Source: Haplodiscus bocki
Taxonomy: Eukaryota
Reading direction: 5' to 3'
Length of the DNA: 64,000 nucleotides
Assembly (NCBI GenBank): GCA_965655095.1
Contig: OZ296656.1
Location: forward strand, 55,490,001-55,554,000
Of this stretch, positions 4,339-64,000 are shown one piece after another. The notes below the pieces were generated by a model that saw nothing but the letters and a program-made list of their open reading frames with translations, searched no databases and was not told the DNA's origin. Each line of letters starts with the position of its first letter. Within the stretch, counting starts at the first letter, position 1. A program made the position numbers and the translations under genes.

Positions 4339-4538
4339 NNNNNNNNNNNNNNNNNNNNNNNNNNNNNNNNNNNNNNNNNNNNNNNNNNNNNNNNNNNNNN
4401 NNNNNNNNNNNNNNNNNNNNNNNNNNNNNNNNNNNNNNNNNNNNNNNNNNNNNNNNNNNNNNNNNNNNNNNNNNNNNNNNNNNNNNNNNNNNNNNNNNNN
4501 NNNNNNNNNNNNNNNNNNNNNNNNNNNNNNNNNNNNNN
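4339..4538. other. Assembly gap (200 N)
   Basis: Run of N characters. Confidence 0.99.
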
Positions 4539-13567: not shown

Positions 13568-13710
13568 TTGAAGCTCGTATAGATACCTTGAACCTCCGCT
13601 GTTCTCTATGGGTTGTTCTTTGCCTATTCTCTGGATTTTGCTACATGCTCTCTGGCATAGCTTAAACATGTTTCTCAAGCACGAGTGACTACGAAGACTC
13701 CATTGCTGGA

Positions 13711-37049: not shown

Positions 37050-39050
37050 TTTTCCGAGGCCAAAAAGTACAAGTTTACCTCAAGAATGTTTTTTTTGGAA
37101 TATCTCTATTTGTGGTCCGCACATTGCCAGAAAGGAAGGGAATGCAACTCCTTGACGTCGAAACTTAGCATCTCAAACAATTTTGTCAAACAACACAGGA
37201 TTGATTTTTTCCATTGAGGTCTCAATCGACAGTTTTCTGCTTGTGGAGAAATAGACAATCAAAAACCATCGTTTTTTGCTTGCGTCAGAACCCTGATAGC
37301 CCAGAAATGCATTTGTCAAGTTATATCTCGATATTCAAACTCAAACGTCTGCGTAGCGACTAGCTTGATTTCTCTCATCACGGTTTTTACGGACGGTTTT
37401 CCACTCTCCCAGGATTATGCAATTTGAAAATCATTGATCTTGATCGTTTCATTGGAAAACTGATTGACCGGAAAAACCAAAAAGTTCTATGAGACTTGTC
37501 ACATTTCGATATCCATATTCAAATTTCATCAACGCATCCTGCTTCATTTGTTCCATCAAGATCTCAATCGACAGCTTTTTACTTCAAGAGACAAGATGAT
37601 TCTAAAAACAAGGATTTTTCCTCCGATGTAATTCTGATAGTCCATAAACTGCTATTGATACTGAGATATCTTTATCCTCAAATTCATCTTTCTACTTGAT
37701 ACAAGTTTCATTTCCTTCAGTAAGATCTCAATCAACAGCCTTCCTTTTGCGGAGAAATTTTTGGTTAGGAAATTATGGATTGTTCCCCTTGTCTGGAGAT
37801 CCCGATAATCAGAATTTATCGGAGAAGTGTCTTTGTTTGGACAAATCTCTTTTTTCTAACTCTTATTTTTCCATAACCACAGTCTTGATCCCTTGCAGCA
37901 AAGTGCTAATCGACAGAATTCTACTCCTGGAGGCCTATGTGGTTTTTAAAGTTATCGATTTTGTTCCCAGCTTTGGAATCTTGACAGACTGGATATGGCG
38001 AAGAGAGCAATCAGTATTGCTGTGTCTCGATATTCAAACTCAAATTTCTCCTCAACTGGCTCGATTTCTGTCATCAAGCTCTTCATCAACAGACTTTTAA
38101 CTTCCTGAGAACTAATTGATTCAAAAATAATCGATTTTGTTCCTTGCGTTTCCATTACTATAGCTCATATTTCTCCATAACCACTGGTTTGGTCTCTTCC
38201 ATCAAGGTCCCGATTCACAGCATTCTATTTCTAGAGCCGTCAGCTTGAGAAATCATTGTCTTTGTTGCTTTTTTTTCGGAATCCTGGTGATCCGAAAATG
38301 CCAAAAGGTGCTTTTAATTTTGAACTATCTCATTTTTTGAAGTTATTTTTCTGAACTTCATGTTTGGTTTCAATCGACAGTAATATACCTCTGGAGTTTT
38401 ATGCTTTGAAAAAATAATCGATGTTATTTCATGCGTTGGAATCCTTTTTGTCCGAAAATGCCAAAAAGGCTAAGAGATTGACACATCTCTATTTTCAAAC
38501 TTTTTCTTTGACTACAGGGTAATTTTTTTTATCGAAGTCCCAATCGACAATTCTCTACTCTTGGGAGCATGGGCTCAAAGATTTTTTGCACTGGAATCCT
38601 GATTCTTCGAGAATGCCAAAATTGACAGTTAGTCCTGTCTTTTCTTGATATTCAAACTTAAATTTCTCGACATATAGCAGCTTGATTTCTTCTATTAATG
38701 TCTCAATCGACAGCTTTCTACTTATCAAACTCTTCGGGTGAGAAAAAGTGGTTTTTCTTCCTGACATCAGATTTCTGGTAGGCTTAAAACGCCAAAAAAC
38801 TCAACGATGAGTTTTCACTACGTTGAAATTCTTTTTGCGGCATGAATATCGGCTGGATTTCCTTCCAAGGATGTTAGTCAAGAATTTCCCAACCATAGCT
38901 GAATAATCAGCTAGTAAACCATCGATTTTAATCTTTACATCGGAATCCATTTTGGCCAGAGTCGATAAAGATTAGTAAGGATTTCAGTGGTATCCAAGCT
39001 GTTTTTTGGCCAGAACTGCGGCTTGATTTTAAATCTGAAGTAACAGTTTC
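37050..39050. repeat. Degenerate tandem array, period about 165-170 bp, roughly 11-12 units
   Basis: TCTCAATCGACAG-like cores at about 37217, 37558, 37722, 37900, 38205, 38367, 38534 and 38697. Confidence 0.75.
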
Positions 39051-39179: not shown

Positions 39180-39867
39180 CCCACGTTCGGACGCAAAGAA
39201 GAATGTGTATTGAAACCGGCCTTTAACAATTTTCTTATCCTGTTCAAACCTAGCATCAGAGGGTCTTCATACTGTAAACTGACAAAATGGGTCTCTTTGG
39301 CAGGTAATTGTTCATTTTCGCTTTGTTTGTTGTGAAAATCTAAAATTTGAGCACCAAAATGGCTTAACCTGAAAAGACATGATTGACATCATTCTTCGCA
39401 TGAGACAGTGTTGCGAGTACTTGTTCTTTTTTTCTAGTCGTTTACTATGCAAACTTCTTAAACACTGAGCATAAAAATGGGTTAATTTGGAACGACGTGA
39501 TTGTTATATCAACTTTTCGAGTATGAGACCCTGTGGCAGGTATTGGTCTCAATCTGATTTTTTCGAACAAACTCCTAATTGACAGCTAATGTATTTCTAA
39601 AAGTGTGTTCATTTTTTACGTAGTTTACTGGGCAAATTTCTAAAAATTTGGGCAGGAAAATGGCGTAACCCGAAAAGACATGATTGATGAATCAATTTTC
39701 GAATGTGATCCTGTGACTTTTGTTGCCTTTTCGATCAAACTTAATTGACAGCTGGTGCATTATTTCTAAAAGTGTCAATCAGATCTCTAATCATGGTATC
39801 AACTTTCATTCGGGATCCGTGATCTCAACGGACAAGTGAATGTGCTGCAAGTTCCGCTTCGCCTCTG
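39180..39867 (+). repeat. Dispersed repeat ending in a hairpin plus CTCTGT, homologous to about 63270-63689
   Basis: Shared GAAGAATGTGTATTGAAAC and CGGGATCCGTGAT.TCAAC.GACAAGT...GTTCCGCTTCGCCTCTGT. Confidence 0.75.
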
Positions 39868-44300: not shown

Positions 44301-44474
44301 ACTTTGTTGTGAAGGTCACTTCGTTTTACTGTTGAATTAAATGTTTAATATAACTCAGTAATTTAATAGTGTTCAGTAAAATGAACAGTTCAGCGCCTCG
44401 CATTTCGATTCTTCGCCGTTAAGTGCAGAATTGCATTTGTAAAATTCAACACTCGATTATGTGACATTTACGTC

Positions 44475-44523
44475 AGTAGTATATGCTGGGGGGGGGTCCC
44501 CCGCACAGTTTCATGGCTCCCTA
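44475..44523 (+). repeat. Maverick left TIR
   Basis: AGTAGTATATGCT-G9-TCCCCCGCACAGTTTCATGGCTCCCTA. Confidence 0.95.
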
Positions 44524-45197
44524 AATTTCATCGAAGTTTTTACCAGAAATTTAACTCCCGAATGACCATATATGGTTACCAAAACACTCTCTGATAATAA
44601 CGAGAGCTATCACTAGACATCGGAACTTCACCCTAATATATTGTGTTGTCAATGAAACCGAAATTTATAGAAAGGTTTCACAGGATATTAGTCTCCAAAA
44701 CTTGAAAATAGCAAGGCAGTGTGGCACGAGTGATTAGGCCTGCAGCAAGGGGTTCGTGGTCCGTAGGATCGAGGCTCACTGAAATCACTAGCGCTACACT
44801 ACCATTTTGGTGAGAAATGCCACTTACCATTCCAGCTTGAGGGCAAAAGTCCATACTATTTGTATAAAATACGTCAAGAGTTCCATTATTCGTATAAAAG
44901 ATTCCAAAGACACCGCCCATAATATTTTTGACACTGCTACATTAGTGTACACGCATACTGGAAACATGAACAACACATGATGAGATATAGCAGTAAAGTT
45001 CAGCATGATCCGTGCTATCAGCTTCAGATGTTTTTTCCATTTTAGGCCTTAAAACCAAATTCAAGCAATTAAAGTCAGAATTATCTTGAATACTCCTAAA
45101 ATATTCCCACCACACATGTCAACAAGAGGAACTGAGCAGTAATTCATTTGCTTATATATTCATTCCTCGAGAAGAATAGCTCCATTAGAAGCTCATC

Positions 45198-46307
45198 ATG
45201 TCTGTTGCAAGAGATTCATCAATTGAGCGCATGCGCTTTGCTTTCTCTTATACGAAACTAACGAAATTATACGAAACTAACGAAATTTACGTGCAAAAAC
45301 TTTGGAGCTCATCAGATGAGGAAATGATAGATCCCCTGGCACAAAAGGAATTTCATCGGTTGTCAGTAACACCTCATTTGGTGGAAAGTTCACCAAAATT
45401 TCTCAAATGGGCCATAGATTTTTCAAATCTAGAATTTTCTGTAACTTTACATTCACAAAATGACAATCAGAAAAATGAAACGGACATATGCTACGACTAC
45501 GGAAGAATTCACTACCATTTGGTGTTTTACAGCGTCAAATTCCCGAAGACAATGGATAAATTGATCAAAAAGATTTTTAATACTGCATTGTTGGAGACAA
45601 TGGTGGGATCACACAGCAGTTACAAGATAGAAATGTTTTCAACAGCGAGTGCAGCTTCCAGGAAAGAGTTCCTCAGAATTACGAAAATTTTACTGGCATA
45701 TGGACCCACAATTCAACGTCATTTCAGCGAATTGAACCACGTTAATACCCGGAGTAACGTTGACTGCATCTGGGAAAAAAGTCAAGCCGTGAGAAAAAGC
45801 TGCAATGATGGCCACGTAATGAAACAAGCACAAATTCTCGACAAACTGGAACGTTCATCAAGTCAATTCAAACACTCCGTAACCGCTATCATCGATTTTT
45901 TGGCTCGAAACAGTTATGGAAAGTTTACGACGACTGAACACAGCTGCACTTTGAATGTCTCTCTCGAACTCGCCAAAGCGCAATGTGATTGCGACGAGTG
46001 TTTTCTAATTCACAACGAGGAAAGAGATGAACAACAATCGATCAACAGTGAAAAATTTCAATACAAGATGAAGGAACCATACTTTTTGAACATTCAATTC
46101 ATGATAAATTTTCCCAGAAAACAGTCGGTTGTGACAATGTATCCTGATTATTATACGGTCAAACAAGTAATCAAAATTTTTGATAAGGTAAAAAGACTTT
46201 TTCCTGAGAACCCAACGAGCAAAAATGCTTTCCTTGCGGTATGCAAAGTAATTAGTTCAGACAAAGATTTGAAAGTAATTAATTCTGAATGCGAATACGG
46301 TGGTTAG
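45198..46307 (+). CDS. Maverick accessory ORF, 369 aa, function unknown (HUH-like GRIHYHLVFY)
   Basis: Uninterrupted ORF inside the TIRs; no family firmly recognised. Confidence 0.7.
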   Translation: MSVARDSSIERMRFAFSYTKLTKLYETNEIYVQKLWSSSDEEMIDPLAQKEFHRLSVTPHLVESSPKFLKWAIDFSNLEFSVTLHSQNDNQKNETDICYDYGRIHYHLVFYSVKFPKTMDKLIKKIFNTALLETMVGSHSSYKIEMFSTASAASRKEFLRITKILLAYGPTIQRHFSELNHVNTRSNVDCIWEKSQAVRKSCNDGHVMKQAQILDKLERSSSQFKHSVTAIIDFLARNSYGKFTTTEHSCTLNVSLELAKAQCDCDECFLIHNEERDEQQSINSEKFQYKMKEPYFLNIQFMINFPRKQSVVTMYPDYYTVKQVIKIFDKVKRLFPENPTSKNAFLAVCKVISSDKDLKVINSECEYGG

Positions 46308-46569
46308 ATAGGACCAGGCAATAGCAGACTTCATCCTTTCCTGCAAAATTTCGAACTTTTCCGTGTTCATGCAGCATTCCATGATGCATTTGGATTCATG
46401 AAAACGCAATACAACTTGGGACCAGGATGTATATGCTTTCGGCGAGAAACCAATTTTTTAAAACTGCTGTCTGCTTGGTCACGTTACGGGGCTGTCGGTT
46501 TGTATTTATCTCAATCTCACAATGTCGGAAAACTATAAAGAATTCCCATTTTGAGGAGAAGGTTTCCAG

Positions 46570-46866
46570 ATGACAGCTGCTTCCTCCTTGCTTCCAAGCG
46601 CAGTTCTTCAACTTTCGGTTGATTCAAAATTGTATGTACAATATAATAATTATCACAACGAATTTCGTATTTATCTCGAGAAATTTGATTACCCGGTTCG
46701 TTCGCAAAACAAAAACTACAAAATTAGGCATTTGACTCCACTAACAGTAGACGAGTTACTTCATTCGACTGAGGCTTCGAAAGTAATTTATTCCACACTT
46801 CAGTACAATCACTACTTCACCCAACAGCAGCATCGACTTCACTACCAACAACAATCAAATTCATAA
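46570..46866 (+). CDS. Maverick small accessory ORF, possibly a PC4-like ssDNA-binding protein
   Basis: LQLSVDSKLYVQYNNYHNEFRIYLEKF follows the PC4 beta pattern (F.IG..RYV.V..FKG...IDIREY); weak. Confidence 0.4.
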   Translation: MTAASSLLPSAVLQLSVDSKLYVQYNNYHNEFRIYLEKFDYPVRSQNKNYKIRHLTPLTVDELLHSTEASKVIYSTLQYNHYFTQQQHRLHYQQQSNS

Positions 46867-47149
46867 GCAAGGAATAGATCAACTGGACACACCAATATGT
46901 CACTGGTGGGAGCATCATCTTTGACAGCGAAGAAAACGAAAGGCCTCCGTGGATAATCACATGCTGCTGCGTTGAAGGAAAATGTGAGAGGTCACTGTTG
47001 GTTTTACTCTTACACTACGGAGTAGTGTTATTATTGGTAACGACTAGTATTGTAGTTCTTATTTTCAGACACAACGGAAAGAAAAGCAGTTTTGGAGTAC
47101 TGGCCATTCTAGCAGCGTGCTTTGGGTATATAATTCCGTCACCGAGACA

Positions 47150-47844
47150 ATGAACAAAATTATTAGCATGGATCCTCACTGCTTTCTTACGGTCATTGCA
47201 CCCAGTGGTTCGGGAAAAACTCATCTAGTTGCGCAACTTCTACGACAGCATCGCCAATTTTTCAAACCCAAATTTGAACAATTTGTCTACTTCTATAAAC
47301 ACTTTCAACCCATTTACGAAGAACTCCTGCTCTCCCTGGGACAGCAAAAATTTCATCTATGTCGAGGAGTCGATTGGTCATTTCTTGACAAAGTTACAGC
47401 ATCAAACAAACCAACCCTTTTGATATTTGACGATGTTTATCAAAATGTCTCCGACACTAAAGAATTTTTGGATCTTGCTATCTCGGGACGACATCAGAAC
47501 CTACATTTATTGGTTTTGAAACATAACTTGTACCAACAATCAAAACATTCAAAAACCATACATTTGAACGTAACACAGATGCTCCTGTTGCGCAATCCAA
47601 GAGATGACAATCAAATTGACTGTTTGGGAAGGCAGTTGGGATGCCGAGAGCTTCTGCTAAACTCCTATAAAAAGCAACACAAGATCAATTTGGTCATTTG
47701 CTGATTGATCTCGACCCTCGTCTGAACGAAAATCTGCGTCTATCTTCCAGCATTATATCAAAGCCTGCAATTTTTTATTGCAACTCAAACGACAACAAAG
47801 TGATGGAACTCAATGATTCCTTCACAGCGTTTATTTACGGTTAA
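47150..47844 (+). pseudogene. Maverick A32/FtsK-like genome-packaging ATPase (one frameshift near 47670)
   Basis: Walker A APSGSGKT, Walker B LLIFDD, GRHQNL...KHNLYQQ; continues as KATQDQFGHLLIDL in a shifted frame. Confidence 0.93.
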
Positions 47845-48139
47845 GCTGTTTTCATCATTTAAACCTGTGTTAAAGAAGCATTTCATTTTGAATTGCAGCG
47901 ATGCAATAATTAAACTTTTCTGTAACTGCGTTTTCAATATCAAACAAGGATCGATAGAACACCAAAATGTCAAAATTCAGTCTCTCAAGAAAAGGATGAC
48001 GCTCATTGAGAAGCTTTGCTCGTCGAAAATTAGACTGGTTTTGAAAAGAGGATTACTTACTGGCTTCGAAACAAGAACTCAGTCTCTTGCGACTTTTGAA
48101 CAATTCAATTCTGAGATACCTGAAACTGCAATGCTATGA
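47813..48139 (+). CDS. Small basic Maverick ORF following the ATPase
   Basis: ILNCSDAIIKLFCNCVFNI..G resembles the 'I..ICEC..N.L.G' small protein I recall in Mavericks; family name not certain. Confidence 0.55.
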   Translation: MIPSQRLFTVKLFSSFKPVLKKHFILNCSDAIIKLFCNCVFNIKQGSIEHQNVKIQSLKKRMTLIEKLCSSKIRLVLKRGLLTGFETRTQSLATFEQFNSEIPETAML

Positions 48140-48753
48140 GCAGCAAAGCAACAGAGATTTGTTCTTGTTCCCGCTGACGTCTATTTTGCGGAAGCACGAT
48201 GCGATATAGTTGGATTACATTCCTCCTCGGTGCTGGATCCTTCAGAACCAGAAAAGATTAAGCTCTCACAACAGAAAATTAGACTGGAAATTATTGAAGA
48301 AAAAAGCGCCGAATCACCGTTGGAAACTACGAACAAAACAACTCAAGTGAGCATTCTCGACCGACTCAAGCAGCTAGAGTCAAATGAAAAGAACGGAAAG
48401 AGCGACAGTTCGGTCAGCGTAAGCAACAAAATACAAGCGGTCATCAGAAAATTGATTGAGATTGGTTTGAGCAGTAGTAAATAAGAAAGACAGGGCGTGA
48501 TACTCGAGCATTTTTCAAAAATTCCCGATTGTCTCTCAACGAACTGTTAGACATTCAACTTGACGGAAATGCGACAGAATTGAATCTATTAACGTTTTTA
48601 AGCGATTTGCAAGTCCTGAACAAAAAACTGAGTGAAAGCGCGTTGAACGTTCTCCGCCTGCTACAAGTCAGCAAACATATCATCTCAAACATCCGAGGAA
48701 AAGATGTCGCTCAACAGTTTTCCACATCAGTATTGTGGATCGAACGCTTCTAA
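48136..48753 (+). pseudogene. Interrupted Maverick hypothetical protein
   Basis: Fragments 48230-48484 and 48529-48753 plus upstream MSSKAQRFVLVP, between ATPase and integrase. Confidence 0.45.
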
Positions 48754-49945
48754 ACTGAAAGTGAGGAGCCTACCAGGAGTTATTCACACACTTGATCAGA
48801 GCAGGAGTTGACAAGAATCCTGGACCTTTGAAGTGCCATTGTTGTTCGAAAAGTTTGGGAAGAAGTATCAAAAAGGCACCAACATTATGGTGTCACGTGT
48901 GCGGATGGCTTCATTTCAAATGCAGTGGTTTAAACTCACCGGCCGACTATGAAAAATCACCAAACTTCCGATGTACGTGGTGTTTAAAAAACACGAGATT
49001 CGCGCTTCAGGCACTACAAAGACTCTACACGACCTTAAACAATCCCTCAGCTTCCGGTTCGAGGCAACCGCTGCGGAGCGCTGCAGCAACAAAAAGAATT
49101 ACTGGCAAGCAAGTGGACAAATTTCTTTCACTCAGTGAAACATACACAAAGTTCCGCGCGAGTAAAAACATTTTCACTCGACTGAAAGTTCAATCCTACA
49201 GCATCAATGAAATCTGGTGTGGCGATTTGGCAGACGTGCATCAACTGGCCAAAGACAATGATGGAAAGAAGTTCCTTGTGGTTTTTGTAGACTGCCTCAG
49301 CCGTTTTTTACGCGTTGAACCCATCGACAACAAGTCAGCTAAACAGACAAGAGCAGCATTGGAAAAAATGACGCGAAAACGAAAACCCGAAAAAAAATTG
49401 GGTTAACAAAGGAAAAGAGTTCAAAGGGGAATTTGGAAAACTTTGCTTGGAGAAAAACATTACGGCGTACAGTACTCATAGTGAGCAGAAGTCGTGTTTT
49501 GCGGAGCGCTATATTCGAACCCTCAAATCAATATTGTTCAAATACCTGCATAAAAACAACACGAGAAAGTACATTGATCAAATTCAAAACTTTGTCAGCC
49601 TAATCACCTCACGTCCCAACAGAACAGCCAAAATTGCTCCCAAAATTATTACCCAACACGATGTACGTTACTTAATTTCACGTCAGCCAATGCCAGCCCA
49701 ATTCGGAAACCACGATACCAAATAGGCGACACTTTACGGATTCGGTTGAAAGTTCTAACATTTCATAAAGGCTACAAAATTCAATTCACAGAGGAAGTTT
49801 CCGAAGTTGTAGCTAACCCAACGCTGAATCCTCCTACATACAATATCAAGCACAAACTTGGACAAATGATTCAGGGCAAATTTTTGAGCAAGAATTAGTT
49901 TTGTTTCGATATAATCGAGAAGACAGTTGGTTGCTAGCTAGCTAG
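48704..49945 (+). pseudogene. Maverick retroviral-like DDE integrase with N-terminal 2A-like peptide and PHD finger; frameshifted
   Basis: AGVDKNPGP; CHCC..CHVC..H..C..CTWC; IWCGDLAD, VDCLSRF, WVNKGKEF (second D replaced by N), FAERYIRTLK, FHKGY...FTEEV...QGKF..QEL. Confidence 0.92.
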
Positions 49946-49948
49946 AGG

Positions 49949-50760
49949 ATGATGGTTGAGCAAAACTTCACAATCAACCTGGTCTCGAATGCTTCCATGG
50001 ACGTATTTCCGGCAAACACCATGGCTCGATTCACAACATTTGCCCAACAAAGTAGAGCTAACTGGAGATTGGGAGGTCGCGCTGTTGGAAGTGTCTTGGC
50101 CGGGAAAAATCAAAAATATGACAAATGCATCGTTCACAATCAGTCGCTTTGATAATGCAAACAGACCATTGAGGCCCGAGCACAATCAAACCATCCCAGC
50201 AGGTTTTTATCCCACTGTAGACACTCTGATGACAAAATTGTTCAAAACAATCTATGAACACGGCGAATACGACAGTGTCACGGAAGGTGGACCCATTGAG
50301 CGAGAAACTTGAAGTGTCGTTGACAGGTCAAGCACCCGAGGACCATTTCTGGATTTTGTTCAAATCTGATGATCTGTCAAAAACTTTGGGAGTGATGGAT
50401 GCAATTTGTGGCACCGTCGAATCACAACGTCAGAAAGGTTTCGCAGCACTAGGCACTTTTCCGGTCGATTTGGAAGGAGGCCGACATACAATGTTCATTT
50501 ATTGTGATTTGGTACAAAACAAAATTTTAGGTGGCTCTCAAGCAGCACTACTGAGAGTGATCCCATTGCAAGAAAACGTAGCATCCACTGGAGCAACTTG
50601 CTACAGAACTTTCGACAAGATGCAATGGAAGCGACTGAATAAGAGTAACTTTCAATCAATCACAATCAGCCTCTGTGACGAGAGTGGTCAACTGATGCCT
50701 TTTGTGAGCATTGGTAGAACCAGTATCACATTTTCCTTTCGACGACGCAAGAAAAAACAT
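49949..50760 (+). pseudogene. Maverick minor capsid protein (penton, PX); frameshifted
   Basis: FTINLVSNASMDVFPANTMARF../LP..VEL.GDWEVALLEV, IPAGFY, MFIYCDLVQ...G....LLRVIP, F.SI.I.L.DE.G..MPF. Confidence 0.88.
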
Positions 50761-50850
50761 CGTCATTCGGTTACAGTCAACTTTTATGAGCAGTTGTGCG
50801 GCTCCGGTGCAATTATCTTCATCATCATCAGCAACATCATCGTCATCAGC

Positions 50851-51317
50851 ATGGATTCGTACTACGCATCTCGGCCACGAGCAGTGTAGGTACGTTTCAC
50901 GGGCCCGCAATAGAGTTTGGTTCAGAGGCCGGATTGGGAGCTTTTGCACTACGCGTTGGACACACAGCCATGCCGCTCTTGAAGAAATATGTAAGCCCTT
51001 TTGTGAAGCAAGTGGGGCAGAATGTTTTGGAAGCGGCTTTGCCCGGAGTTGTAAGTCTAATTAAGGGGAGAAAGGGAAAGCAGTCGTTAAACAAACGAGC
51101 AATAAAAGACAGCGCGAAAAAAGTTTTGGCAAAAATAGTTGAAACACACGCCGCGGCGGGCGGGCGGCTGGCCGTCAAGCCGGAAAAGAAAAGCAGCGCT
51201 TACAGTCAAATCATCGTCCTCCACAGTCATTTCAAACACAAAGTCTGCAAAAAGAAGTCGGCTGGATATTTTGGCAAACGTGAAATTCAACAACAACTCC
51301 TCCGTGTGACAAAATGA
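50851..51317 (+). pseudogene. Small basic putative virion core/cement protein
   Basis: MDSYY...G.GLG.F.LRVG..AMPLLKKY amphipathic basic pattern between penton and MCP; frameshift near the start. Confidence 0.6.
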
Positions 51318-52654
51318 ACAGTAATTGTGGTACAAGCAACGCATTTCACCCACGATTTCATGGTCGAGCATCAGACGTGACCAACCCGGTAGCGCACGGT
51401 GCTCTCGATTTTTTTGAGACCGTCAGTGTTGATAAATTATGAAGGATCTCAGGACCAAGAAGTGTTTCCACAAGTTGGCTGCCGTGGCCCACAACTCGAT
51501 TTTGTCGTTACGTCCGACAGCAGAAATTTGATTGACTTGAACAAAATCACACTTGACTTGGAATGCGCAATCTATGATTCAGATGGAAGAACCCCTGCCG
51601 AGGGATCTATCCCAGTCTGTTTTACCAACAACACGCTCCGCAGTCTTTTTTCACATGCTGAAGCTTTTCTAAACGGGATACTGATATCAACAAGCAACAA
51701 TGCTTACCACCACTCGGCCTTTATTGAGACGGAAATGACCACAGACTTGGTCTCCAAAACAACCTGGGCTGAAACTCACGGTTATCAATACCAAGGAGAC
51801 AAAAGCACAGTTGAAGAAGTCAATAAGTGGAGAAAAGAAAAATTCAAGCAAGGAAAATGCACAAAAAACAAACTCAAACTTGATGGAGCCCCTCACATTG
51901 ATTTCTTTGAGTGCGAAAAGCTTTTGCTGCCAGGCGTCACACTGCACTTACGCCTTCATAGATCGAGCAACGACTTTTCCCTACAATATTTTGCTGAAAG
52001 CGACGATAAATTTGTGATCGTTATTGAGAGAGCTTCAGTGTTTGTGACGAAATTGATTTTGAAGGATTCTGTACGTCTGTCAATAGAAAAAGCACCAATC
52101 AACGCGCGATTGCATTACCCCTGCATTGAAATGATGAACAAAAGTGTACAAAAAGCTGGACAAAACAGTTTTGTGAAAGAAAATCTTTTTGGAACAGATC
52201 CAGTGAGACGACTAACGTTATGCATGGCAACCAATGAGCAGTTCCGTGGAACACTGACCCTCTTCACTATCAACCATTTGGGCTGCAACGGCTGGAAATT
52301 ACGCGAGGAAATGGAGTTCCAATTCCAGGAACACCGTTGGATGTGCGGAATGGAAGGATGAGAGCCTACTACAAAACCATTTGTTCACTTGGTTTTTCTA
52401 GCGGCTGCAAAGGAAATGGAATTGTTTGAGGAAACTTTGAGGATCACTTTGTTTTCGTGTTCGACCTAACATCCACGAGAGAATCTTCAAATAGCTTAAC
52501 GCTGTTTCCTGAGCTCACTGGAGATAGTCTCACGCTGAAGTTACTGTTTGAAAAGGCCTTGGAAAAAACAGTCAAACTGTTTGTCATTGCTGAAAAATTC
52601 AGTCAAATTTTTTTAGATTCGCAGCGAAACATAACCAGAAGTTCATTACTCTGA
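51314..52654 (+). pseudogene. Maverick major capsid protein (double jelly-roll, PY); frameshifted
   Basis: LSIF..P...PQLDFVV....IDL....L..NNTLRSLFS....LNG..I.....Y..AFIET..HIDFF..EKLLLPGV.L.LRL.R; C-terminal FDLT fragment 52457-52654. Confidence 0.88.
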
Positions 52655-52680
52655 AGATTGTGCTATCTTATCCACATCTA

Positions 52681-53198
52681 ATGGACAACTTCAGTCTCCA
52701 AAAGTTGGCCTTTCAGTGCAATCATCTCACTGAATTCTTTCGTGGAGTCCGCAGTGCCGACAACTTCCCGTCAATGTGTAATGACAACGAAGAAGACGGG
52801 AAAGCGTTGTTTCAAATTGTGAATACAGAACCAAGCTATCTACAGGGAAAACACTGGGTTTTACTTTGTCGTCGAAAAAAACAGTCTGGGACTTTTGGCA
52901 AAAAAGATCCGTGCATTGTGTTTTGGGATATTTTGGGAAACGAACCAAAAACTTACAAAAGACTATACACGAGAATAATGAATATGTATAAAAAATTTTA
53001 GTTTTCAACCATCCTCTTCAGAGCCATTTCTCCAACTGTTGTGGATTATATTGCCTACTGATGGCACATCATCTACCAAAATGTGAAAACTTTGAAACTA
53101 TTGCAAAAACGATTCCAAGCAGGATGGTTGATGAGCACATGCTGGTGAGTTTTTTGAATTACCATTATAAAACGTATTATAGCCTTTTGACTACATAG
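52681..53198 (+). pseudogene. Adenain-like cysteine maturation protease (one frameshift near 53000)
   Basis: FRGV.SAD.FP, IVNTEPS...GKHWV, FWD.LG, then LQSHFSNCCGLYC; catalytic H/D/Q/C retained. Confidence 0.92.
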
Positions 53199-53234
53199 TT
53201 ACGATGAAGCTGATCAATTCAAATATTTTTATGG

Positions 53235-53256
53235 TTCTTCTTCCTCCTCCTCCTCC

Positions 53257-53324
<68 letters not shown>

Positions 53325-53372
53325 TACATCATATCATCATCATCATCATCTACATCATATCATCATCATCAC
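53235..53372. repeat. Compound (CTT/CCT)n-(CAT)n microsatellite
   Basis: Long perfect CAT run with degenerate flanks. Confidence 0.97.
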
Positions 53373-53782
53373 CATCTTCAACTTCTGAGGCTTCTTTGAG
53401 TATAAAATGACATATTTTGCTGGGCTGGTCGTCATCTTCATCACAATCAGTGAGATTGTCGAAATCAACAATGTCCGACGAGTCATCATCATCAACTTTT
53501 TCATCATCGGAGCGCGGTATAAAACCAGTATCAATGGTACCTAAAAGAGCAAAAAAAAACAATTTTGAAGGAACACTGAGATTTATGCAAAGTGAAAAGT
53601 GCTCAAGGGTGTACAGTAACTTGCAATAGATGAAGGTGATGAGCAATAGGCTACAGAGACATTTTCTGCCCGCCTATGACTCAGTGATGTTGATGATGAA
53701 GTTGTGGAGTGAGTTTCACATTCATCATCATCCGCAAGAACTGCCGTGGTTTTTATCAGCTCACTGTGTACATGTGGGCCAT

Positions 53783-56700
53783 CTAAACACTATTAAAAGA
53801 TGAGAGTCTATGATGTTCAAGTGAAAATTCAGTGGAACCAAAAAGAACATTACAAAAAGTACTTGTCTGATCGAGGGAATAATGACCATAGGCGAAAGAC
53901 TGAATTCCATCCTCCAAGATGAAGCGTTTGCCGTCAAAAGCACTCACGACAATTTTGTTGATTTGAGTCACGAGCAATTGATGCTGTTGAGATTGAATTC
54001 AGGTCACGTTCTTACGAATGTTTCCTCTTGAAGACAAAACATCATTGAAAAGATCTTGGTGAAGGGTTTTTCACGCACTTTTGGACACCCTCGCACTGTT
54101 TGATCCCACTTTCATATTTGATGCTCTAGAGTTTTGAGCGAAGACAAGTCGCTTCCAACATGATTTGACCAGTCAATTCATCTTTCATTGTGAGTGGTAC
54201 TTTTTTGTTTGTGCAATCGAACAATTTGTGATTTTGGAGAAAATCCGACAAATCGAGCAAATGCTTGAAAGACTCCATATCAGAGTAGAGATCATCGGTT
54301 TCTATTCGATGGTACAAAGGATCGGTGTCTTTGTACACGACTTTGAGGCTATCTCCAAACTTGGGTTTCATTTCAATATAATGAAATTTGTAGAGAACAA
54401 TTTTTGATAAGTCCAGTATAGCGGCCCCGACAGGCGTCGGCTTATTCCAAAAAATTGAAGACTCTGAAGTTAACTGACACAAGGCTGTCGTGAATAATTT
54501 GAGAATTCAAAAAGTGGGTTTTAGTGTGCAGGCTTTTGCCTCAGGTTCAGTGGACAAAAACTTGGTTTGTCTGCGATTTCGCAAATTTTGCATTGTCTTA
54601 CCAAAGCAGGCGTTTAAAAGTAGCTTGAAGAAGTTTTTATCGATGTCTGTTTTGGCTTGTTTCCGCAAGGCTGTGTTTTTTGAGATATAATTACCCAACC
54701 AGCAACTTTGATCAAATTGAAGCACACGATGAAGGCGCTTCACCGTTAAACCCTTCTCCACGTTAAAACTTCAAATTTCTAAAATGACAAATATAGAAGT
54801 TTTTATCGAAAAGAGTTTCGACCAGCTTGGCAACTTGCGATGCTGGAATTCCAAAAGACTTCGCATAGTCCGATAGCCATTCAGTTTTGATGTAATTTTT
54901 CGGGAGCGCGCGGCAAATCGTTGTGATGGTCATGCAAATGAAGAGGTTACTCTAAATCAACTTCAACGAAGTACCCAACGCCACCGAAGCAGTCTGCATT
55001 CAGAATGTCATCGATGGTCAAATCGTTTCGCCATTTATAATTGCCACATGGGAGAAGCTGTTGCATCGTTCCGGAATAGAGTCATGTGACATCAAAGAAA
55101 GCCTCAAACACAGATGGCTGAGATTTATCGAAGTCTTCCATGTACTTTTTTTGGCTTTGAAGTGCCTCATAGCACCGATTGCATTGATGCCACCACGAAT
55201 GGCTCGCTCACAAAATAGCAACATGTCAATATCACTCAAGAGACCGATTTCAACTTTAGTGGTATTCAACATTCCTTCCCAACTCAAGTTTGGAGCTCGA
55301 AAAGATGAACTGGGTCCAAATGATACTCTGAGACAAACACCACGGAAAGCTTCAAAGATATCTGCTAAGAGATAGACATCGATAGTCAAATAAAAATCGT
55401 GATAGTCACTTATGTTGTTGCAACGCATCAGTGTATGAATCTCCTTTGCCTTTTCATAGTCTTGTTCACTTATGTCTATTTTTCCAGACACTGTTTCTCC
55501 AAGCGTCCCCGTAAGCAGGAAGAGGCTGGGAAAATTTTTCAAAGCTGTCCAAAAAATTGTCAGGGAAAAAACCTTTGCCTCGAATTTTTCCAAAATCAAA
55601 ATCGCTCATGTCAGAAAACTTGTTTCGAAGCAGTTGGAGTGATGAGGTCTGCATAGTTTTTGCAAGACTTTTAAGGCTCTGAGACATAAATTGAAAACTG
55701 TCCAAGAAACGAATTTCGCTGTCAAGAGGCACATGTCTTCCATCTTTGCATATGTGTTCAGAAAATTTAATTCGTAGTCTGAAAGAAATGTACACCTCAT
55801 CGTTTCTGCTAATGGCTGAAATCTTCTCGCCAGGACGGACAATCAAAGATTTCAAAATATGATGGGCATCATATCTCGACAGGTTGTGGAACAGTACAGG
55901 AAGGATGCGTTTCGTCTGAGCACGCAAGTTGCAATTGGTATGCGCTGTTCTCAAAACTTTCCCCGTTGAATGGCCATGATGTATAACAGGGGAAACAGCA
56001 ACAAATTCATTGCAGATACAACAATTAATATCCACAGTGGACGCTAAGTAGACTTTTTGGTGACTTTTACTCATTGCATCATTTAAATTTTTAAATTTCT
56101 GCCATTCCGAGTCGCACCAATTGTTCCATCGACGAAGGCAGTTCATCAGAGTATTAATACTATCCTCACCGCGGTAAAAAGACTCGGCAATGACAGAATT
56201 GGTTCGACCATCCACCAGAATGGCCCCATAACTAGCCGGAACTTGACGTTCAAGGATAACTGTACTTTTCCCTTTGGCAACATTTATTGCAACATTGAGA
56301 GCCTCCAAATCTGCGTAAACAACGAAAGGACACTTTTGGGTTCTCTCCCAATTCACAAATTTCAATTTGAACTCCTCACTAGGCATCACGATTCTCAGAG
56401 GTTGATTGTCTTCACACAGCCGGATATGATCAGCGTATTTATTTTTTCCGATGGGTAGCATACAATTCACACAAGTTTGTCCTTCGGCCTTTTTCGGCTT
56501 TTCCTAGAGAACGACATAATTTATGCATCAAGTTTTGAAAATTCATTATCAAGCAATAATGAAAATTCAACCCGTCAGTGAGTAGTAACAAGAAAACTTT
56601 TCGGAAGTTGCCCTTCAGCTTACTCCTATGACCACAAAAGAGCAAGCCATCATCATCGCGACTCGAAACGGTGATCGCTAAACTGTTGTTTGTTTCAAAC

Positions 56701-57613
56701 TTTGGAATGTCTCGAAGTTTCATTGGCATAGATGATCTGTCGAAAACAAGTCGATCAATTTTGTCACTATAGTTGGATGGTCGCTCTCGATTTTTTGCGC
56801 AAGGGTAGAGGAATGACAGAATGCAGTATATGAAACAAATTGTCTGACAGATTTCTGATATTCAAAAGGCTATATCGAAACCGAGCAAGTTTTGTTGGAG
56901 TCGGTATAAAGGAACTGCCAGCCAGTGATCAGGTTTTACAAACTTTAATATCCAATGATAGAAGTTTTCCGAGGACCCAGCCTGAGCCCCCACTACAAAA
57001 TACATTGAGTTGTCGAAGAGTTGGTTAACCAATTCATTGAGATCGCATTCATCTATAGACTCCACAACACGTCTTAATCGTGTTGAAAAGTAGGGAAAGA
57101 CATTTTCCCCATCCAATGGTTTCGAAAAGACTACTTGAATGCATAAGCCAACACGTGATATCCCTTGGTTAGTTATCTCTTTGTCAATTAAAAGAGCAAT
57201 ATCAGACCGGTTGCTCATCATAAAAGCGAAAGGATTGACTCCTCCCTGTTGTACGTCCACTCAATGGAGTTTAGGGCTGATACAACTGTTGAAACCTGTG
57301 CAACAGAGGCCCACTTAATTTCATTGACAAATGTTGAAGACGAAAGAGTAGAATGTTCAGCGGCTCTGTGATTACAAAGTGTCGATTCATGCCCAAAAAT
57401 TTTCGGACCCGCATTGCAGCTAATTGTTTTCTTGAATTTATGAACATTTCGCAGGTGACGGAGCAAATTTTTAGACGTAGTGAAAATTGAGTTACAATGT
57501 CCGCAAGTAAAGGCACATAAAGATCGTTCTCGTTTGTTAAGTTCGCGGATATGCTTCAACAATGTTCGTTTTGTATCGAAGACGATACCACAATCAGGGC
57601 AGGGGAGAAACAT
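53783..57613 (-). pseudogene. Protein-primed family-B DNA polymerase (pPolB) with N-terminal C2H2 zinc fingers and an endonuclease-VII-like insert; multiple frameshifts and stops
   Basis: GSGWV, ExoI VYADLE, ExoII FHNLSRYD, RFLDSF, KGFFP, Y...DV.LLADIFE.FR, IRGG, FDVT*LY, KLLLNACFGKT, YKDTDP, DGKR....I..AYGHY. Confidence 0.95.
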
Positions 57614-58177
57614 TTAGCAGTTCGTCAATACCAAAAAAGTCAGTCGATCGAAATGATGCTGGGTGAAATCAAAACTAGTTGCAATCTTTTTGAAATTAGC
57701 CCAATTGATAGTGAAACCCAACCCTACCTTCAAAAATTTTCTCCCGATTTTTTTGCTAATTTCACCGATCATCACAGTGGAATTTTTCGAAGTTCAAGAA
57801 ATAAATGCGTTAATTGAGCTTTGAAGAGTATATTAGGTACAACAAGCGATTAAAAATGATCCTCTAGACAGTGTCTAATTCTGTTAACATTCTATCACAG
57901 CTCTTGTAGAACGAGTTCGAAAGGTTCACACGATCTATCAGATAATGTCAGACGGATCCAACAAACGGTTGACGGACTTGGCGAGACCCCCACATCAGGT
58001 AGACCATTTAGGGAGAGCACTAACTCTAGAACTTTGGCAAGTCTGAAGCTATCTGGACATAAGGATAGATAGCGGTTAAAATAAAATTCACTTGTCAAAT
58101 CGAAGGTATAAAAAGAAGTTCTGTCAAGAGCAAAGTTATTCATCTCAGTTATATCGCAGAAAGCATACGAAAACATA

Positions 58178-58525
58178 ATGCAGAACTTTCTATCTATCAT
58201 AATTCACGATTCCCGCGAAGTAACAGTTCGCAGTAGCAGCCCTCGAAACGGTGAATTTGACATCAAAGTGCTGAAAAAGAGACTTGATGAGTTTGGCGAA
58301 GCGGGTGGTGTGATTGAAACGGAAGTCACTTTCCGTCAATCCTCCTTCACTAATCTTCTGAGGCTCAACTGGACAAAGCTCTTCTTCTCGATGTTGGGCA
58401 AATCCCAAATTCCGGAAGATATGAAGATTCCATCTCTGCCTGACTATGATGTGGGCCTGCGCAATGAGTCAAGATTCACGACAACAATCTACTCGGAAAG
58501 TAGTAAGATGAAATTTCACGCCTGA
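58178..58525 (+). CDS. Maverick accessory ORF, 115 aa, unknown
   Basis: ATG-initiated ORF divergent from pPolB, inside the TIRs. Confidence 0.45.
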   Translation: MQNFLSIIIHDSREVTVRSSSPRNGEFDIKVLKKRLDEFGEAGGVIETEVTFRQSSFTNLLRLNWTKLFFSMLGKSQIPEDMKIPSLPDYDVGLRNESRFTTTIYSESSKMKFHA

Positions 58526-58635
58526 AACCAAAGCAGGTTTTGATAAATCATTAAATATTTAGAAAACTAGTATCTCACTCGCTCAATTGTATTGCATGGT
58601 AATTGGGCAAAATTTGAAAACAATAGCTCAATTGA

Positions 58636-59109
58636 GTGAGGGTTCATTGTTTAGGTCCGAAGAGTGCATTTCGAACATCCGTCAATCTGTTTAATTCCAA
58701 CTGCCACACCAAGAAAGCTGTATACATAACCCTGAAGTTATTCAAGTATGAAGTGGAGTGGTCGCAGTTCACTCGAATTGGCCAAGTCATCACGCTTCAT
58801 CATTGTGAAATGATGCGATTAATCCTCGAATATAACGATTACTTGGAGCAAGCGGCACCAAATATTGACATCAGTGAGGGAGCTAACTTATCTGCACCAG
58901 TAGTAGAAAACGACGAAGAAGAATACAGGCCAATTGTGGTGTTTAGACCGCCACAAAAGAAAGCTAAGACAGCAGCGAAGAATACGCCGCCTAAGAAAAA
59001 TACGAAAAAGACAACAAAGCAAACGGATAAAACCCAGTCCACTTCAGCCGCTACAAATACAGCTACAACAACCAAAACCGAAGATGTTTTGATCGAAAGT
59101 GATGGGTGA
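58636..59109 (+). CDS. Maverick accessory ORF, possible PC4-like fold with acidic then Lys/Thr-rich tail
   Basis: FRTSVNLF...VYITLKLFKY...QVITL...E...L pattern; PPQKKAK NLS-like tail; true start uncertain. Confidence 0.5.
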   Translation: MRVHCLGPKSAFRTSVNLFNSNCHTKKAVYITLKLFKYEVEWSQFTRIGQVITLHHCEMMRLILEYNDYLEQAAPNIDISEGANLSAPVVENDEEEYRPIVVFRPPQKKAKTAAKNTPPKKNTKKTTKQTDKTQSTSAATNTATTTKTEDVLIESDG

Positions 59110-59886
59110 CTTTCGTTGATTAACTTGAATAGGCATATAAGAAATATTCAGCTGGAATTGGAAATTAGAAAAGAGCATTAGTAACATTGTAAATGTTACT
59201 CTATAAGTTTAAACTAAGTATTTCAAACGTATATCTAGCCCGTTTTGCAGGGATTCAATCAGCATTAACTTTATAAAATTGCAATTGAAGTTTGAAACTA
59301 ACCTTTTGTAGAAGAGTTGCTGGAAATTTCCGAAAGTAGCTGAGCATTCTTGCCAATGAATTGAGAGAGCACTGTGCCTTAGGATAAAATTGAAAAGAAA
59401 ATAGACCGCAAAAATTTCAATTTTGGAAAACGCATAGCGAGATCGTTTCAAAAGTAATCTAGTTCGATTCGATCCCACCTCAAGCTCATCCAACTTTTTT
59501 GAACCCAAATTCCGACAAAAATTCGGTTATTTGGTCGAGCGAACAAAATTGACACGAGCAAAAAGAATTTTCCAATCCAAAACCCCTTTTATAATTGTTT
59601 CACAATCCCGCCAGCGCCAGCGGGCTGTTCCATTTGGCCCAGAATTCGCGACTTACATGAAATCCGTCGTAGTATAAACCACTAGGCTACAGGCACCATT
59701 GATTTCAGCTGAAACGAATTGGTCATAAATGCAGTAATGCGAATAAGCAACACCATCGTTTAATACTTTCTTTGAGCATATTTACACGGTATATGCCGAA
59801 AAGAATGGAACGGCATTCACACAACATAGTTTGATCAATATTCTAAGTCAATTAAGTTCAATATGTATGAATTTGATGACGTTATA

Positions 59887-59935
59887 TAGGGAGCCATGAA
59901 ACTGTGCAGGGACCCCCCCCCCAGCATATAGTACT
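59887..59935 (-). repeat. Maverick right TIR
   Basis: TAGGGAGCCATGAAACTGTGCAGGGA-C10-AGCATATAGTACT, the reverse complement of the left TIR with few differences. Confidence 0.95.
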
Positions 59936-61999
59936 TACGTCAAAATTGAAAAGTTTCAAAATTGTAGAGATCAGTATTTAACAGGCAGTAGCTCACATGT
60001 ATCTGGCTTAAATTTAACAAGCTGGGATTATGAAGACGGTATCACATTTTTTTCAGTGTTGTATTCTTAACTTTTTATCGCGCAAATTCAAACCCAAATC
60101 AAAGTTTTTCGTGAAGTATCGTGAAAGTCACTAGAAGCTGAATTTTTCCGCATAAGCGTGTGGGTATGGCAAAAAGTTTCGTTTTACATTTGTAAAATTT
60201 TTGCTAACGCAGGCAAAGTTGTCGCGAAATTTGTACTATTTTTTCGAAAATTTTCGGTTTACACAAAGAGTAGCAGGAATGGTTTCGGTCTTTCTGTTGC
60301 CTGGATTTTTTAATATGTCACGATAATTGAAATAAAAAAGTTGGGTGTTTTTAGCCTTTGGATGATGTCGATGGGATATTCGTTCATTTTGGCTGATATA
60401 CCTTGACAAGCAACGCTTTTTTGTTTTCCGCCCATAGTTATAAATTGGAAGGAAAATTATCCACTGAAAACGCTGAAATCGAACGTGTTTTAGATTTTTG
60501 CCAATTGTTAATTTCCGATGTAAGTGAAACTGTCCGAAGTTCTGACCGTGAAATTTTTCATACCAAATTTCTTGCAAATTTGCCGTAGAATGCAATTGAA
60601 ATAGTGACGTTTCTCAAAACGTACGAAATTTGTTTTTTATGGACTTTTTTCCGGAAAAGAAACTTGATTTTTTTTTCAAAATCGGTAAAGGTAGCAGATT
60701 TACTGTAGAATGTGTATATCAAATGATACTATTTCATAAAAATGTCGTCCATCTGAACAAAGGGTTTTTGCAGAAGTCAGAAAAATTTTAAATTTGGAAA
60801 ATTTATCAAAATTTGCTGAAATTAATTTATTCGAGAAAACGCTTTCATCCTTCTAAAAGGTATCTTTAGCAAAGTTAAAGGGTGGAAAATATGCCGGTGG
60901 TGGCCGGCGATCTTGTATTTTATCTAGTCTAACGCAGAGTTTTTATTGCTTTACCGTCAATGTTCGCTTTTGATGGGATGCTAAGTAATTCAAGGCACCT
61001 TCTTGACTTCTAAACTATTCACATTTTCTGAGATTATGATAATTTCTTTATCAAATAGGTTCTCTTTTCGACTTTATCCGTCAGTTTATGTGACGTTATC
61101 AAACATGCTCTATTACTATGTCAATTTCTTCGCGCTTGTTGCTTATTTTTTATCGATACTTAAAGTAGGCTGTTTTGATAGCAGTTGAAAATTGATAGAA
61201 ATAATTATCTTTCACTTCAGTCACCTCAATGCTCGAACCCCGCCAAGAGCCTATTTTTTTTTAAAAAAATGGAAATTTTTCAATTTGGGAGAAAATGTTA
61301 AAATGGCATAATAAAGAAGGCATAATAAAAGGGCAAATTTTCTTGAAACGTTTTTCTAACAGTTAGAATGCGCCAGAAAATCCCGGTGGTAGCCGTTTGT
61401 TTTGTTTAGTATCCTATAAACAAAGTTCAACTACATTTTTTACATAGAAGCGTTTTTCAGAGCATCTGGCAATGAACATGTTTGGCGACATATCATAGTG
61501 ATCAGAAACCAATGAGTTGCAGGTGCTTGTCTCAACTTGGATTTTCGAGCTTCTTCAATTGTTTTCGGCACTATTGTTGTTTGATTCAATTCTTGGCCGC
61601 GCGATCTCGAAATGTCAATAAGGGACTAAAAACTTGTGTCAATTGCATTTTAAAATCAAATCCTCTTTGAATAATGCTTTTATTTTCCAGTATTTTAGTG
61701 ATCATTGATCGTTTTGTCTTTGAGTTTGTTGCAAAATAGAGATTCGTCTTCGTTAACCATCCACTTTTATGTGCGCACAATCATCGAAAATTGTCTGGAT
61801 AGAAATTGTTCGTATTATTCAAAAATTTAGTTAATATGAGAAGTGAATAAATCAAACCGAAGATGGGCGTAATGCTCAAAATACTTTGAGAGTTATCATT
61901 AAGGTGGCAAACGCCAGCCTATCATGGTCGACGCGTTTTTCTTGTCGTATCGTTCACAACTCGCACGAGATGATAATGGGATGAATCTAGTTAAAGTCG

Positions 62000-62897: not shown

Positions 62898-64000
62898 AAT
62901 GTCAAAATAAGTTCAATTAGCAGTTTGACCTCAAATTATCATCGTAATTACAACATATCTCCTCGAAGATACTGGACCATATTGCATGGCTGGATACTGC
63001 CCGCCATTTAAATATTGAGACTTTTTTCATTTATTCTTTGCGGAAAGCACATTTTCAAAAACACCAACTTTTCGTAAAGAAGAGTGAAGCGCGCGCGTTC
63101 TTATCAATCTTAATAACTTTCATGTCTGTCATTCTAAACGGCGATACTCCGTTTTAGATAACAGTGCAATGACGCGGGTGCTTGTGAACGAGGTCAAACC
63201 TACACAACAGTAGAACACATTTGTGAAATGTCCAAAGATTATTTTAATTAACTGTTTTCACACATTCTGACTGAAAGGAAGAATGTGTATTGAAACTGAC
63301 TTGTGCTTAGTTTTTTTATCCTGTCCAAAACGTGCATTTTTTTGCGTCATCGGAGAGTCCAGTCATGAATTGTAAACTGTCCTAAATGGCCTCTTTTGGG
63401 CAGGTATTGGTTCATTTTCCCGTTCTTTACTGTGAAAATCTTCCAAACATTGAGTATCGAAATAGCGTAATTTGAAAAAAAAACATGATTGACGACGTCT
63501 CAATTTTTGCATATGAGACAGTGTGGTGGTACTCATCTCAATTTCACTTTCGCACAAACTCTTGATTGACAGCTAATGTAGTGTTTCTAAAGGTGTCCAT
63601 TACATTTCTGATCATGGTTTCAGGTGTTTCGGGATCCGTGATATCAACTGACAAGTCAGAATGTGTTGCGAAGTTCCGCTTCGCCTCTGTGTTAGATGAT
63701 TAAATTATTTTCAAATCGCGATCTCTTTCGATCTTCTCCCACCAGTAGTAACGAGATTTTCAACCCCCCCCCCCCCCCTCACGCAGAAGCGACTCGTCTC
63801 TGATTGGCTAAAATTCTTTTGCGGGTGAGTTAAAACACATTACGCCGCTGATTATTTCGCATATTCATTGTGATGTGTGTGTATGTGTGTGGGAGGCAGT
63901 TAAATCAGTTGGGAGAGAGGAGTTATCAGAAAAGATCCTTAAATTAGTTACGATTCATGTGCTACTGTGGGAATTAATTTTGTCGGAAAATTCTTTCCCT

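Follow-up and report, generated by a model that had tools for sequence, protein, structure and literature searches.

Maverick integrases with a StopGo-type leader and an atypical PHD finger, and without a chromodomain, in the genome of Haplodiscus bocki

Mavericks/Polintons (adintoviruses) are described as elements of about 15 kb with AGT-doubled inverted ends and a 6-bp target duplication, which encode a protein-primed DNA polymerase B, a packaging ATPase, and an rve integrase (PMC8502044 and PMC8097293). The integrases of adintoviruses carry a predicted chromodomain (PMC8502044), and a PHD finger is not mentioned in the main text of either report. A PHD finger joined to the integrase-like DDE enzyme of a DNA transposon is known from the Ginger1 transposases, but there the finger is C-terminal and lies beside a Ulp1 protease, no 2A peptide is described, and the element moves by cut and paste (PMC2836005). 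Besides, an N-terminal 2A peptide followed by a PHD finger and an APE endonuclease is a described layout of LINEs (PMC3708506), and a dose lowered by ribosome drop-off at the 2A has been proposed for LINE ORF2 (PMC3894237). The Maverick family described here shares with the LINE layout a 2A peptide 40 to 80 residues from the start, a PHD finger directly after it, and a proposed lowering of output, whereas its block heads the DDE integrase of a DNA virus-like element, with no reverse transcriptase and no RNA intermediate. Unlike the adintovirus integrases, those of this family have no chromodomain and carry the 2A leader and PHD finger at the N terminus.

The stretch analyzed (64,000 nucleotides of contig OZ296656.1; hereafter, the window) contains a decayed element of 15.5 kb (44475 to 59935) with inverted ends and a 6-bp target duplication, which together with a packaging ATPase and a protein-primed polymerase identify it as a Maverick (Table 1). 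The terminal inverted repeats are complementary at 53 of 60 bases, flanks included. Their AGT-doubled end motif matches the description in PMC8097293, with one mismatch in the right repeat. Three frames between the integrase and the polymerase are at the place expected for the capsid and protease genes of a Maverick and are conserved across copies, without a match in Pfam. By a motif, the first of them is probably the minor capsid (penton) gene, and the other two are presumably the major capsid and adenovirus-like protease genes. The frame nearest to the left end gave no match in a Pfam search. A run of the trinucleotide TCA (53227 to 53390) separates the probable protease gene from the polymerase gene's end, and a repeat of 69 to 72% similarity flanks the Maverick on both sides (39181 to 39867 and 63261 to 63690, about 24 kb apart). 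Elsewhere, the window holds diverged repeats of 160 to 340 bp (37170 to 38800), broken reverse-transcriptase frames of a non-LTR element (13666 to 16062; Pfam RVT_1), and a run of 200 N (4339 to 4538).

Table 1. Features of the Maverick element, in window positions
Feature	Position	Strand	Evidence or remark
Target site duplication, left copy, 6 bp	44469..44474		Same hexamer at both element ends
Left terminal inverted repeat, starting with doubled AGT	44475..44526	+	Inverted-repeat search
Open frame without assigned function	45189..46307	+	tblastn matches in copies L107, L108, and L075
Packaging ATPase	47048..47704	+	Pfam Pox_A32, 22.8 bits, at cut-off; AAA families
Conserved gene upstream of integrase	48140..48753	+	Broken near 48481
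Integrase leader	48704..48827	+	42 residues in siblings; broken near 48791 here
StopGo core octamer	48804..48827	+	GVDKNPGP in window copy
Predicted skip site	Between Gly 48822-48824 and Pro 48825-48827	+	StopGo motif as defined in PMC12846837
PHD-fold zinc finger, C4HC3, short Cys4-His5 spacing, net basic	48834..48983	+	Predicted structure, structural matches
rve-type DDE catalytic core	49221..49560	+	Pfam rve; broken near 49388
SH3-like C-terminal barrel	49720..49920	+	All-beta C terminus in model; protein end in siblings
Probable minor capsid (penton) gene, broken	49953..50889	+	Conserved in other copies
Probable major capsid gene, broken	51393..52361	+	Conserved in other copies
Probable adenovirus-like protease gene	52594..53001	+	Conserved in other copies
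Protein-primed family B polymerase	54126..57613	-	Pfam DNA_pol_B_2, 29.7 bits (cut-off 25.8); zf-C2H2
Right terminal inverted repeat	59884..59935	-	Inverted-repeat search
Target site duplication, right copy, 6 bp	59936..59941		Hexamer identical to left copy

An earlier note on this DNA had proposed that a 2A-like motif, a PHD finger, and an integrase follow each other in frame, and all of its coordinates hold: LIRAGVDKNPGP (48792 to 48827) and a Cys/His cluster (48834 to 48983) lie in one open frame (48765 to 49406), which continues into the integrase core (Pfam rve, E = 2e-7). The frame of the window copy breaks near 48791, 49001, 49388, 49681, and 49884, and the position of the second catalytic Asp reads Asn (49405 to 49407). 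Owing to the break near 48791, the octamer and the ATG at 48704 lie in different frames. A search of the same genome gave at least 150 matches, and the copy counts below were taken from the 30 best. The ATG is present in 26 of these, and its site shares a single frame with the octamer in 27, which bears out the proposal that one frameshift separates the two in the window copy. Three siblings (L003, L005, and L009) have uninterrupted frames of 411 or 412 residues ending right after the C-terminal barrel, and the order in the sibling frames is an ATG, a leader ending LIRAG-VEKNPGP, the PHD finger, the DDE integrase, and an SH3-like end. We also checked the possibility, raised in the same note, that other copies lack the block or carry it out of frame; the siblings carry it in one frame, so that it is a family trait, and a private LINE insertion in the window copy is ruled out. 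The architecture is a real, conserved feature of this family of Maverick integrases.

A similar gene precedes the integrase in all 10 loci examined, with and without 2A. In the 2A families its last 17 codons overlap the leader ATG in another frame, and the ATG may be conserved only through this overlap. We fetched 40 weaker matches (about 39 to 49% identity) and found the finger pattern in 35, with NPGP within the 75 residues before the finger in none of the 35. These 2A-less PHD integrases make up at least five Maverick families in the same genome, with a Met of their own shortly before the finger; therefore, the finger is usable without skipping, and it is not special to the family described here.

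StopGo (2A-type) peptides are known from RNA viruses, from certain retrotransposons, and from a small number of cellular genes. Their core has been widened to (D/G/C/N)(V/I)ExNPGP: Gly occurs at position 12 as often as Asp does, and G, C, and N at that position as well as His at position 16 are reported to be functional (PMC12846837). The octamer reads GVEKNPGP in 12 of the 30 best copies and fits G(V/I)ExNPGP in 15. Asp for Glu at position 14, which is reported to leave low activity (PMC3708506), occurs in the window copy only (1 of 30). The deviation from the consensus that had been pointed out from the window letters thus largely vanishes, because the Asp is private to one copy and Gly-12 is a recognized, common, and functional variant. 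Among 24 distinct hexamer-plus-octamer variants of Maverick leaders (one LINE row, P0142, excluded), 16 fit the widened core; at position 12, 19 variants have G, 2 have C, 1 has N, and the remaining 2 have R or E, and His at position 16 is the rule in one cluster. The upstream tract consists of LLIRA-G type hexamers, fitting the Gly-12 class, whose tract is L-rich with A/G/S-G as its last residues (motif 5 description of PMC12846837), and a helix is predicted at leader residues 14 to 33 in the model of a full-length relative. The 2A of infectious flacherie virus, which ends LIRAGIESNPGP and has a listed activity of 0.45 (PMC12338488 supplement), is nearly the same over the last 12 residues (LIRAG-I/V-E-x-NPGP) and also has an L-rich upstream tract (PMC12338488 supplement and PMC12846837).

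The 2A leaders are kept across Maverick families that are only 47 to 50% identical. Between two subfamilies (L003 versus L075, L030, and L022) the octamer shows only synonymous, V/I, and free-position changes, and the leader further upstream diverges. The skip site lies 3 to 9 residues ahead of Cys1 in every 2A family. Genome-wide, G(V/I)ExNPGP gave 117 matches versus 0 for the reversed control, so that the pattern is not due to chance; the 20 sites fetched comprised 1 Maverick, 9 apparent LINE starts, and 10 Helitron frames. Several LINE 2As are weak or dead, and the motif alone is insufficient, since the context decides (PMC3708506); in one screen, high activity was seen for only 139 of 1969 non-canonical peptides and for 43 of 580 from retroelements (bioRxiv 2026.09.24.754024). 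From the sequence features given above, skipping is likely to be active in the intact copies. Database protein starts may be GTG or TTG calls.

All eight C4HC3 ligands of the finger are present and are invariant or nearly so in 20 aligned copies, and the Cys4-His5 gap is three residues, one shorter than usual. The Pfam PHD family (PF00628) matched 4 of 14 proteins, all under the cut-off of 24 (15 to 17 bits; E = 0.005 to 0.02). AlphaFold2 models of the finger reached a pLDDT of 79 at best (others, 44 to 62), and the top structural matches of the best model were all PHD fingers (Z = 6.0 to 6.1; for example, 5y20 with a Z of 6.0 and an rmsd of 1.8 over 51 residues), with FYVE matches lower (Z = 4.0). 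The top three clusters in the Atlas, a lead only, were PHD as well (0.79 to 0.80). The C4HC3 PHD finger recognized earlier is therefore supported, by ligand conservation and predicted structure with Pfam scores under the cut-off, as an atypical PHD fold. A short Cys4-His5 spacing was also seen in the N-terminal finger of an APE-less reverse-transcriptase element (P0155, P0157, P0161, P0162, P0173, and P0178), of which P0178 has 997 residues and Pfam RVT_1, with no 2A in the called protein.

The finger shares its fold, the eight zinc ligands, and a Trp before His5 with PHD fingers that read H3K4 methylation (AL1, 5y20; BPTF, 2f6j; PHF2, 3kqi; ceKDM7A, 3n9l), and this Trp, which precedes His5 by two residues, hardly varies. 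In contrast to those readers, the finger is net basic (8 to 11 Lys/Arg versus 1 to 5 Asp/Glu in 20 of 20 copies), which makes it a poor match for the basic histone tail, and its Cys4-His5 gap is shorter by one residue. PHD fingers of the H3K4me3-reading subclass have an aromatic/Met cage and an acidic pocket for Arg2. In PHF2, a Met before Cys3 and an Asp after it have roles in H3 binding; the Maverick finger has Ser/Thr/Pro-type and His/Asn residues in their place. A complex prediction for the finger and H3 tail residues 1 to 32 of the genome itself, in which the alignment was unused, scored 0.01 and is uninformative either way. The histone-reading finger assumed at first has the fold as its sole argument, and its charge and residues make reading of H3K4 in the ordinary way unlikely. 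Histone reading is doubtful; judged from the residues, the finger would be improbable as a reader of methylated H3K4, and it might possibly, if not quite probably, influence target choice. As of 2014, no functional study of LINE PHD fingers was known (PMC4120745).

The sibling integrases score over the Pfam rve cut-off. In the model of a full-length relative, a helical leader is followed by the finger, a bundle of helices, the core, and a C-terminal part that is all beta; the model matches retroviral intasomes, foamy virus integrase being the best (PFV, E = 1e-14). Pfam Chromo matched 0 of 14 PHD integrases, with both controls positive, a chromodomain motif was found in 0 of 50 PHD rows, and 32 full-length PHD-bearing homologues end within 20 residues after the barrel. 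Accordingly, the absence of a chromodomain stated in the earlier note stands, whereas the integrase end given there, 49945, is the end of the window copy's frame, and the siblings stop near 49920. PHD fingers were found in 0 of 11 chromodomain rows; this mutual exclusion is weaker than it appears, because the gene calls behind most of the chromodomain rows are short at the N terminus. Two chromodomain-type integrases (P0089 and P0090) carry an N-terminal DUF5679 and a phospholipase A2-like domain.

Of the 102 relatives obtained in a protein search, 53 were used for a tree of the integrase region (12 rows labelled 2A, one of which, P0037, is without a called leader). All PHD-bearing rows formed one clade (95/95), in which a second 2A group (P0023 type) branched first and the 2A-less families formed one nested clade (99/95). 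The P0023-type clade was not found in this genome (best match, 50%) and therefore comes from other assemblies. The closest outside rows have neither a PHD finger nor a chromodomain, which means that the chromodomain was lost before the finger arrived and that there was no direct swap of one reader for another. A profile of the finger with the 2A left out gave 94 matches among 1.84 billion proteins, 47 of them non-Maverick, and the four best non-Maverick matches are LINE-type 2A-PHD or PHD-APE proteins. By a lenient counting pattern drawn up after the matches had been seen, 29 of the 47 have either a 2A-like motif or the start of an endonuclease. Several LINE-type matches share the short Cys4-His5 spacing, and one LINE-type protein aligns pairwise at 46% along 68 residues that take in both the 2A and the finger. 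A reverse transcriptase was not found in either of the two longest proteins of the closest LINE-type cluster; a full 2A-PHD-APE-RT frame is present in this genome (L083). In the reverse direction, a search with one LINE-type protein matched only two Maverick copies in this genome, and a search with the LINE-type P0149 gave no match in it at 1e-15. The nearest non-Maverick fingers, being in LINE-type 2A-PHD(-endonuclease) proteins, support the capture from a LINE-type 2A-PHD module that the earlier note had envisaged, and on these sequence relationships the leader and finger were probably captured as one block. The direction from LINE to Maverick is inferred because the LINE layout is widespread and the Maverick form is one nested clade.

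The simplest reading of the integrase tree would be one gain of 2A plus PHD, followed by one loss of 2A. It is also conceivable that the PHD finger came first and that the 2A leader joined it in one or two later events, from the LINEs or Helitrons with a 2A that are common in the genome and have similar leaders. The integrase tree and the finger tree disagree on the order of events: a tree of 58 finger columns united the 2A rows (91/89), placed those without 2A at scattered points near its base, left the rest unresolved, and tied the Mavericks to no single LINE group, and in an AU test (26 rows) a single 2A clade was not rejected (p = 0.142). The 2A-less PHD families, at least five in this genome, would also fit a finger older than the leader. 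This order was our first reading; it has been weakened by the integrase tree, the best supported, which nests the 2A-less clade inside the 2A groups, and the AU test and finger tree leave room for it. Since the nearest finger donors already have a 2A at the same distance, and since more events are needed, we regard two separate gains as rather unlikely.

As to what the block does, one might assume that the finger is a true reader of the histone tail (H3K4me3 or H3K4me0), which took over target choice from the chromodomain and is exposed by skipping. This would accord with the best structural matches, the H3K4me-binding PHDs AL1 and BPTF, with the nearly invariant Trp, with the 0 of 50 and 0 of 11 counts for co-occurrence of the two domains, and with a skip site 3 to 9 residues before Cys1 in every 2A family. 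We consider it unlikely, as the nearest relatives lack both domains, so that the loss came first, the chromodomain rows are mostly short at the N terminus, the finger is strongly basic with an incomplete cage, and the 2A-less families place it behind an ordinary Met. Dual targeting, in which the leader doubles as a signal sequence so that unskipped integrase enters the secretory pathway and the skipped product the nucleus, has been described for 2A-like leaders of the sea urchin (PMC4981915). The leaders of the other 2A clade are indeed strongly hydrophobic (10-residue Kyte-Doolittle maxima up to 3.1), but those of the window family are weaker (0.4 to 2.1) and broken up by Arg/Glu. Besides, we know of no use for a secreted integrase, and such targeting seems quite unlikely. 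Also quite improbable, in our view, are an inactive leader left over as a relic and a leader translated by frameshifting out of the upstream gene, where the 2A would part two real proteins in the manner of a viral polyprotein. Weak 2As are frequent among retroelements, the distance from the upstream stop to the octamer end is only about 25 codons, roughly one 2A length, and a Phe codon precedes that stop in most copies. A relic would hardly retain the motif while the upstream leader diverges beyond alignment, however, and the in-frame ATG in 26 of 30 copies speaks against a frameshift. Of the 30 copies, 12 have TTT for the Phe and 12 have TTC, the latter with all four copies of the second subfamily among them; a conserved slippery site does not agree with this, and a slippery-stop frameshift is therefore not supported.

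Taken as a whole, the Maverick in the window is a decayed member of a family whose integrase has a StopGo-type leader and a PHD finger and no chromodomain; on balance we think it probable that the leader makes the ribosome skip one bond and that the block was captured from a LINE. In the intact siblings, one frame runs from the ATG through the leader, G(V/I)ExNPGP, the PHD finger, and the DDE core to the SH3-like barrel. Translation would initiate at the ATG within the end of the upstream gene, and a Gly-Pro skip would free a 41-residue peptide and an integrase beginning Pro-Leu-Lys-Cys, three residues before the first Cys. Some ribosomes might drop off, resulting in a low dose of integrase. 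The skip may be kept by selection, as the captured leader would give a start codon and yet be a hydrophobic burden, and one branch may have gained its own Met 2 to 20 residues before the finger and lost the leader. In what would be the weakest step, the basic finger might tether the integrase to chromatin or DNA, probably outside the usual H3K4me3 cage. A more speculative proposal, which we put forward tentatively, is that StopGo frees the integrase, that the LINE-derived PHD finger steers insertion by a non-canonical chromatin contact, and that a portable N-terminal StopGo leader has spread over the LINEs, Helitrons, and Mavericks of a single genome as a general means of dosing or maturing transposases.

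Each part of this architecture is known, and the combination is a real and apparently undescribed variant of the Maverick integrase. A 2A or a PHD finger on a Maverick integrase was not found in the literature searched, which stood apart from Repbase, the founding Maverick papers, most subscription journals, and some supplements; terms for the combination did not occur in the accessible text of PMC8502044, PMC8097293, PMC11131425, PMC12846837, or PMC12338488. The StopGo surveys in the last two cover RNA viruses and cellular proteomes, unlike the Maverick leaders presented here; "Polinton" and "Maverick" are absent from their main texts, and "Polinton" is absent from the supplement searched. 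About two dozen natural peptides of the Gly-12 class are thereby added for study. Furthermore, the clade offers a natural comparison of sister families with and without the leader, with the same finger and the same gene order, so that the purpose of an N-terminal 2A releasing a short peptide and the binding partners of mobile-element PHD fingers become testable. The probable capture would also be a domain transfer from a retrotransposon into a DNA virus-like genome.

Outside this genome, a scan of IMG/VR with P0024 gave no match, and a metagenome scan with the finger profile gave seven loci, five of which are PHD integrases without 2A, of the kind present in this genome, and two of which are 9-residue chance matches. 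Within the genome, 2A-PHD-endonuclease starts occur in several LINE families (L071, L072, L076, L077, L082, L083, and L086 to L088). The leader of L071 and L072 ends LLIRAGIETNPGP, nearly the Maverick leader, and their finger has the usual Cys4-His5 spacing. Helitron Rep-helicase frames (L080, L081, L089, and L090; L073, L074, L078, and L079; L084 and L085) start with a leader that is hydrophobic and ends in LRS-G(I/V)ExNPGP; a basic stretch comes next. The 2A-leader Helitrons, which account for 10 of the 20 motif sites fetched, belong to at least three families that are 27 to 32% identical between groups, and one of them (L080) has OTU and Helitron_like_N domains in a frame of 1775 residues. 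The Helitron-associated motif recurs about every 15 kb at G000:C3:133760105-134276324, and also on C4 and C9, suggesting long tandem arrays.
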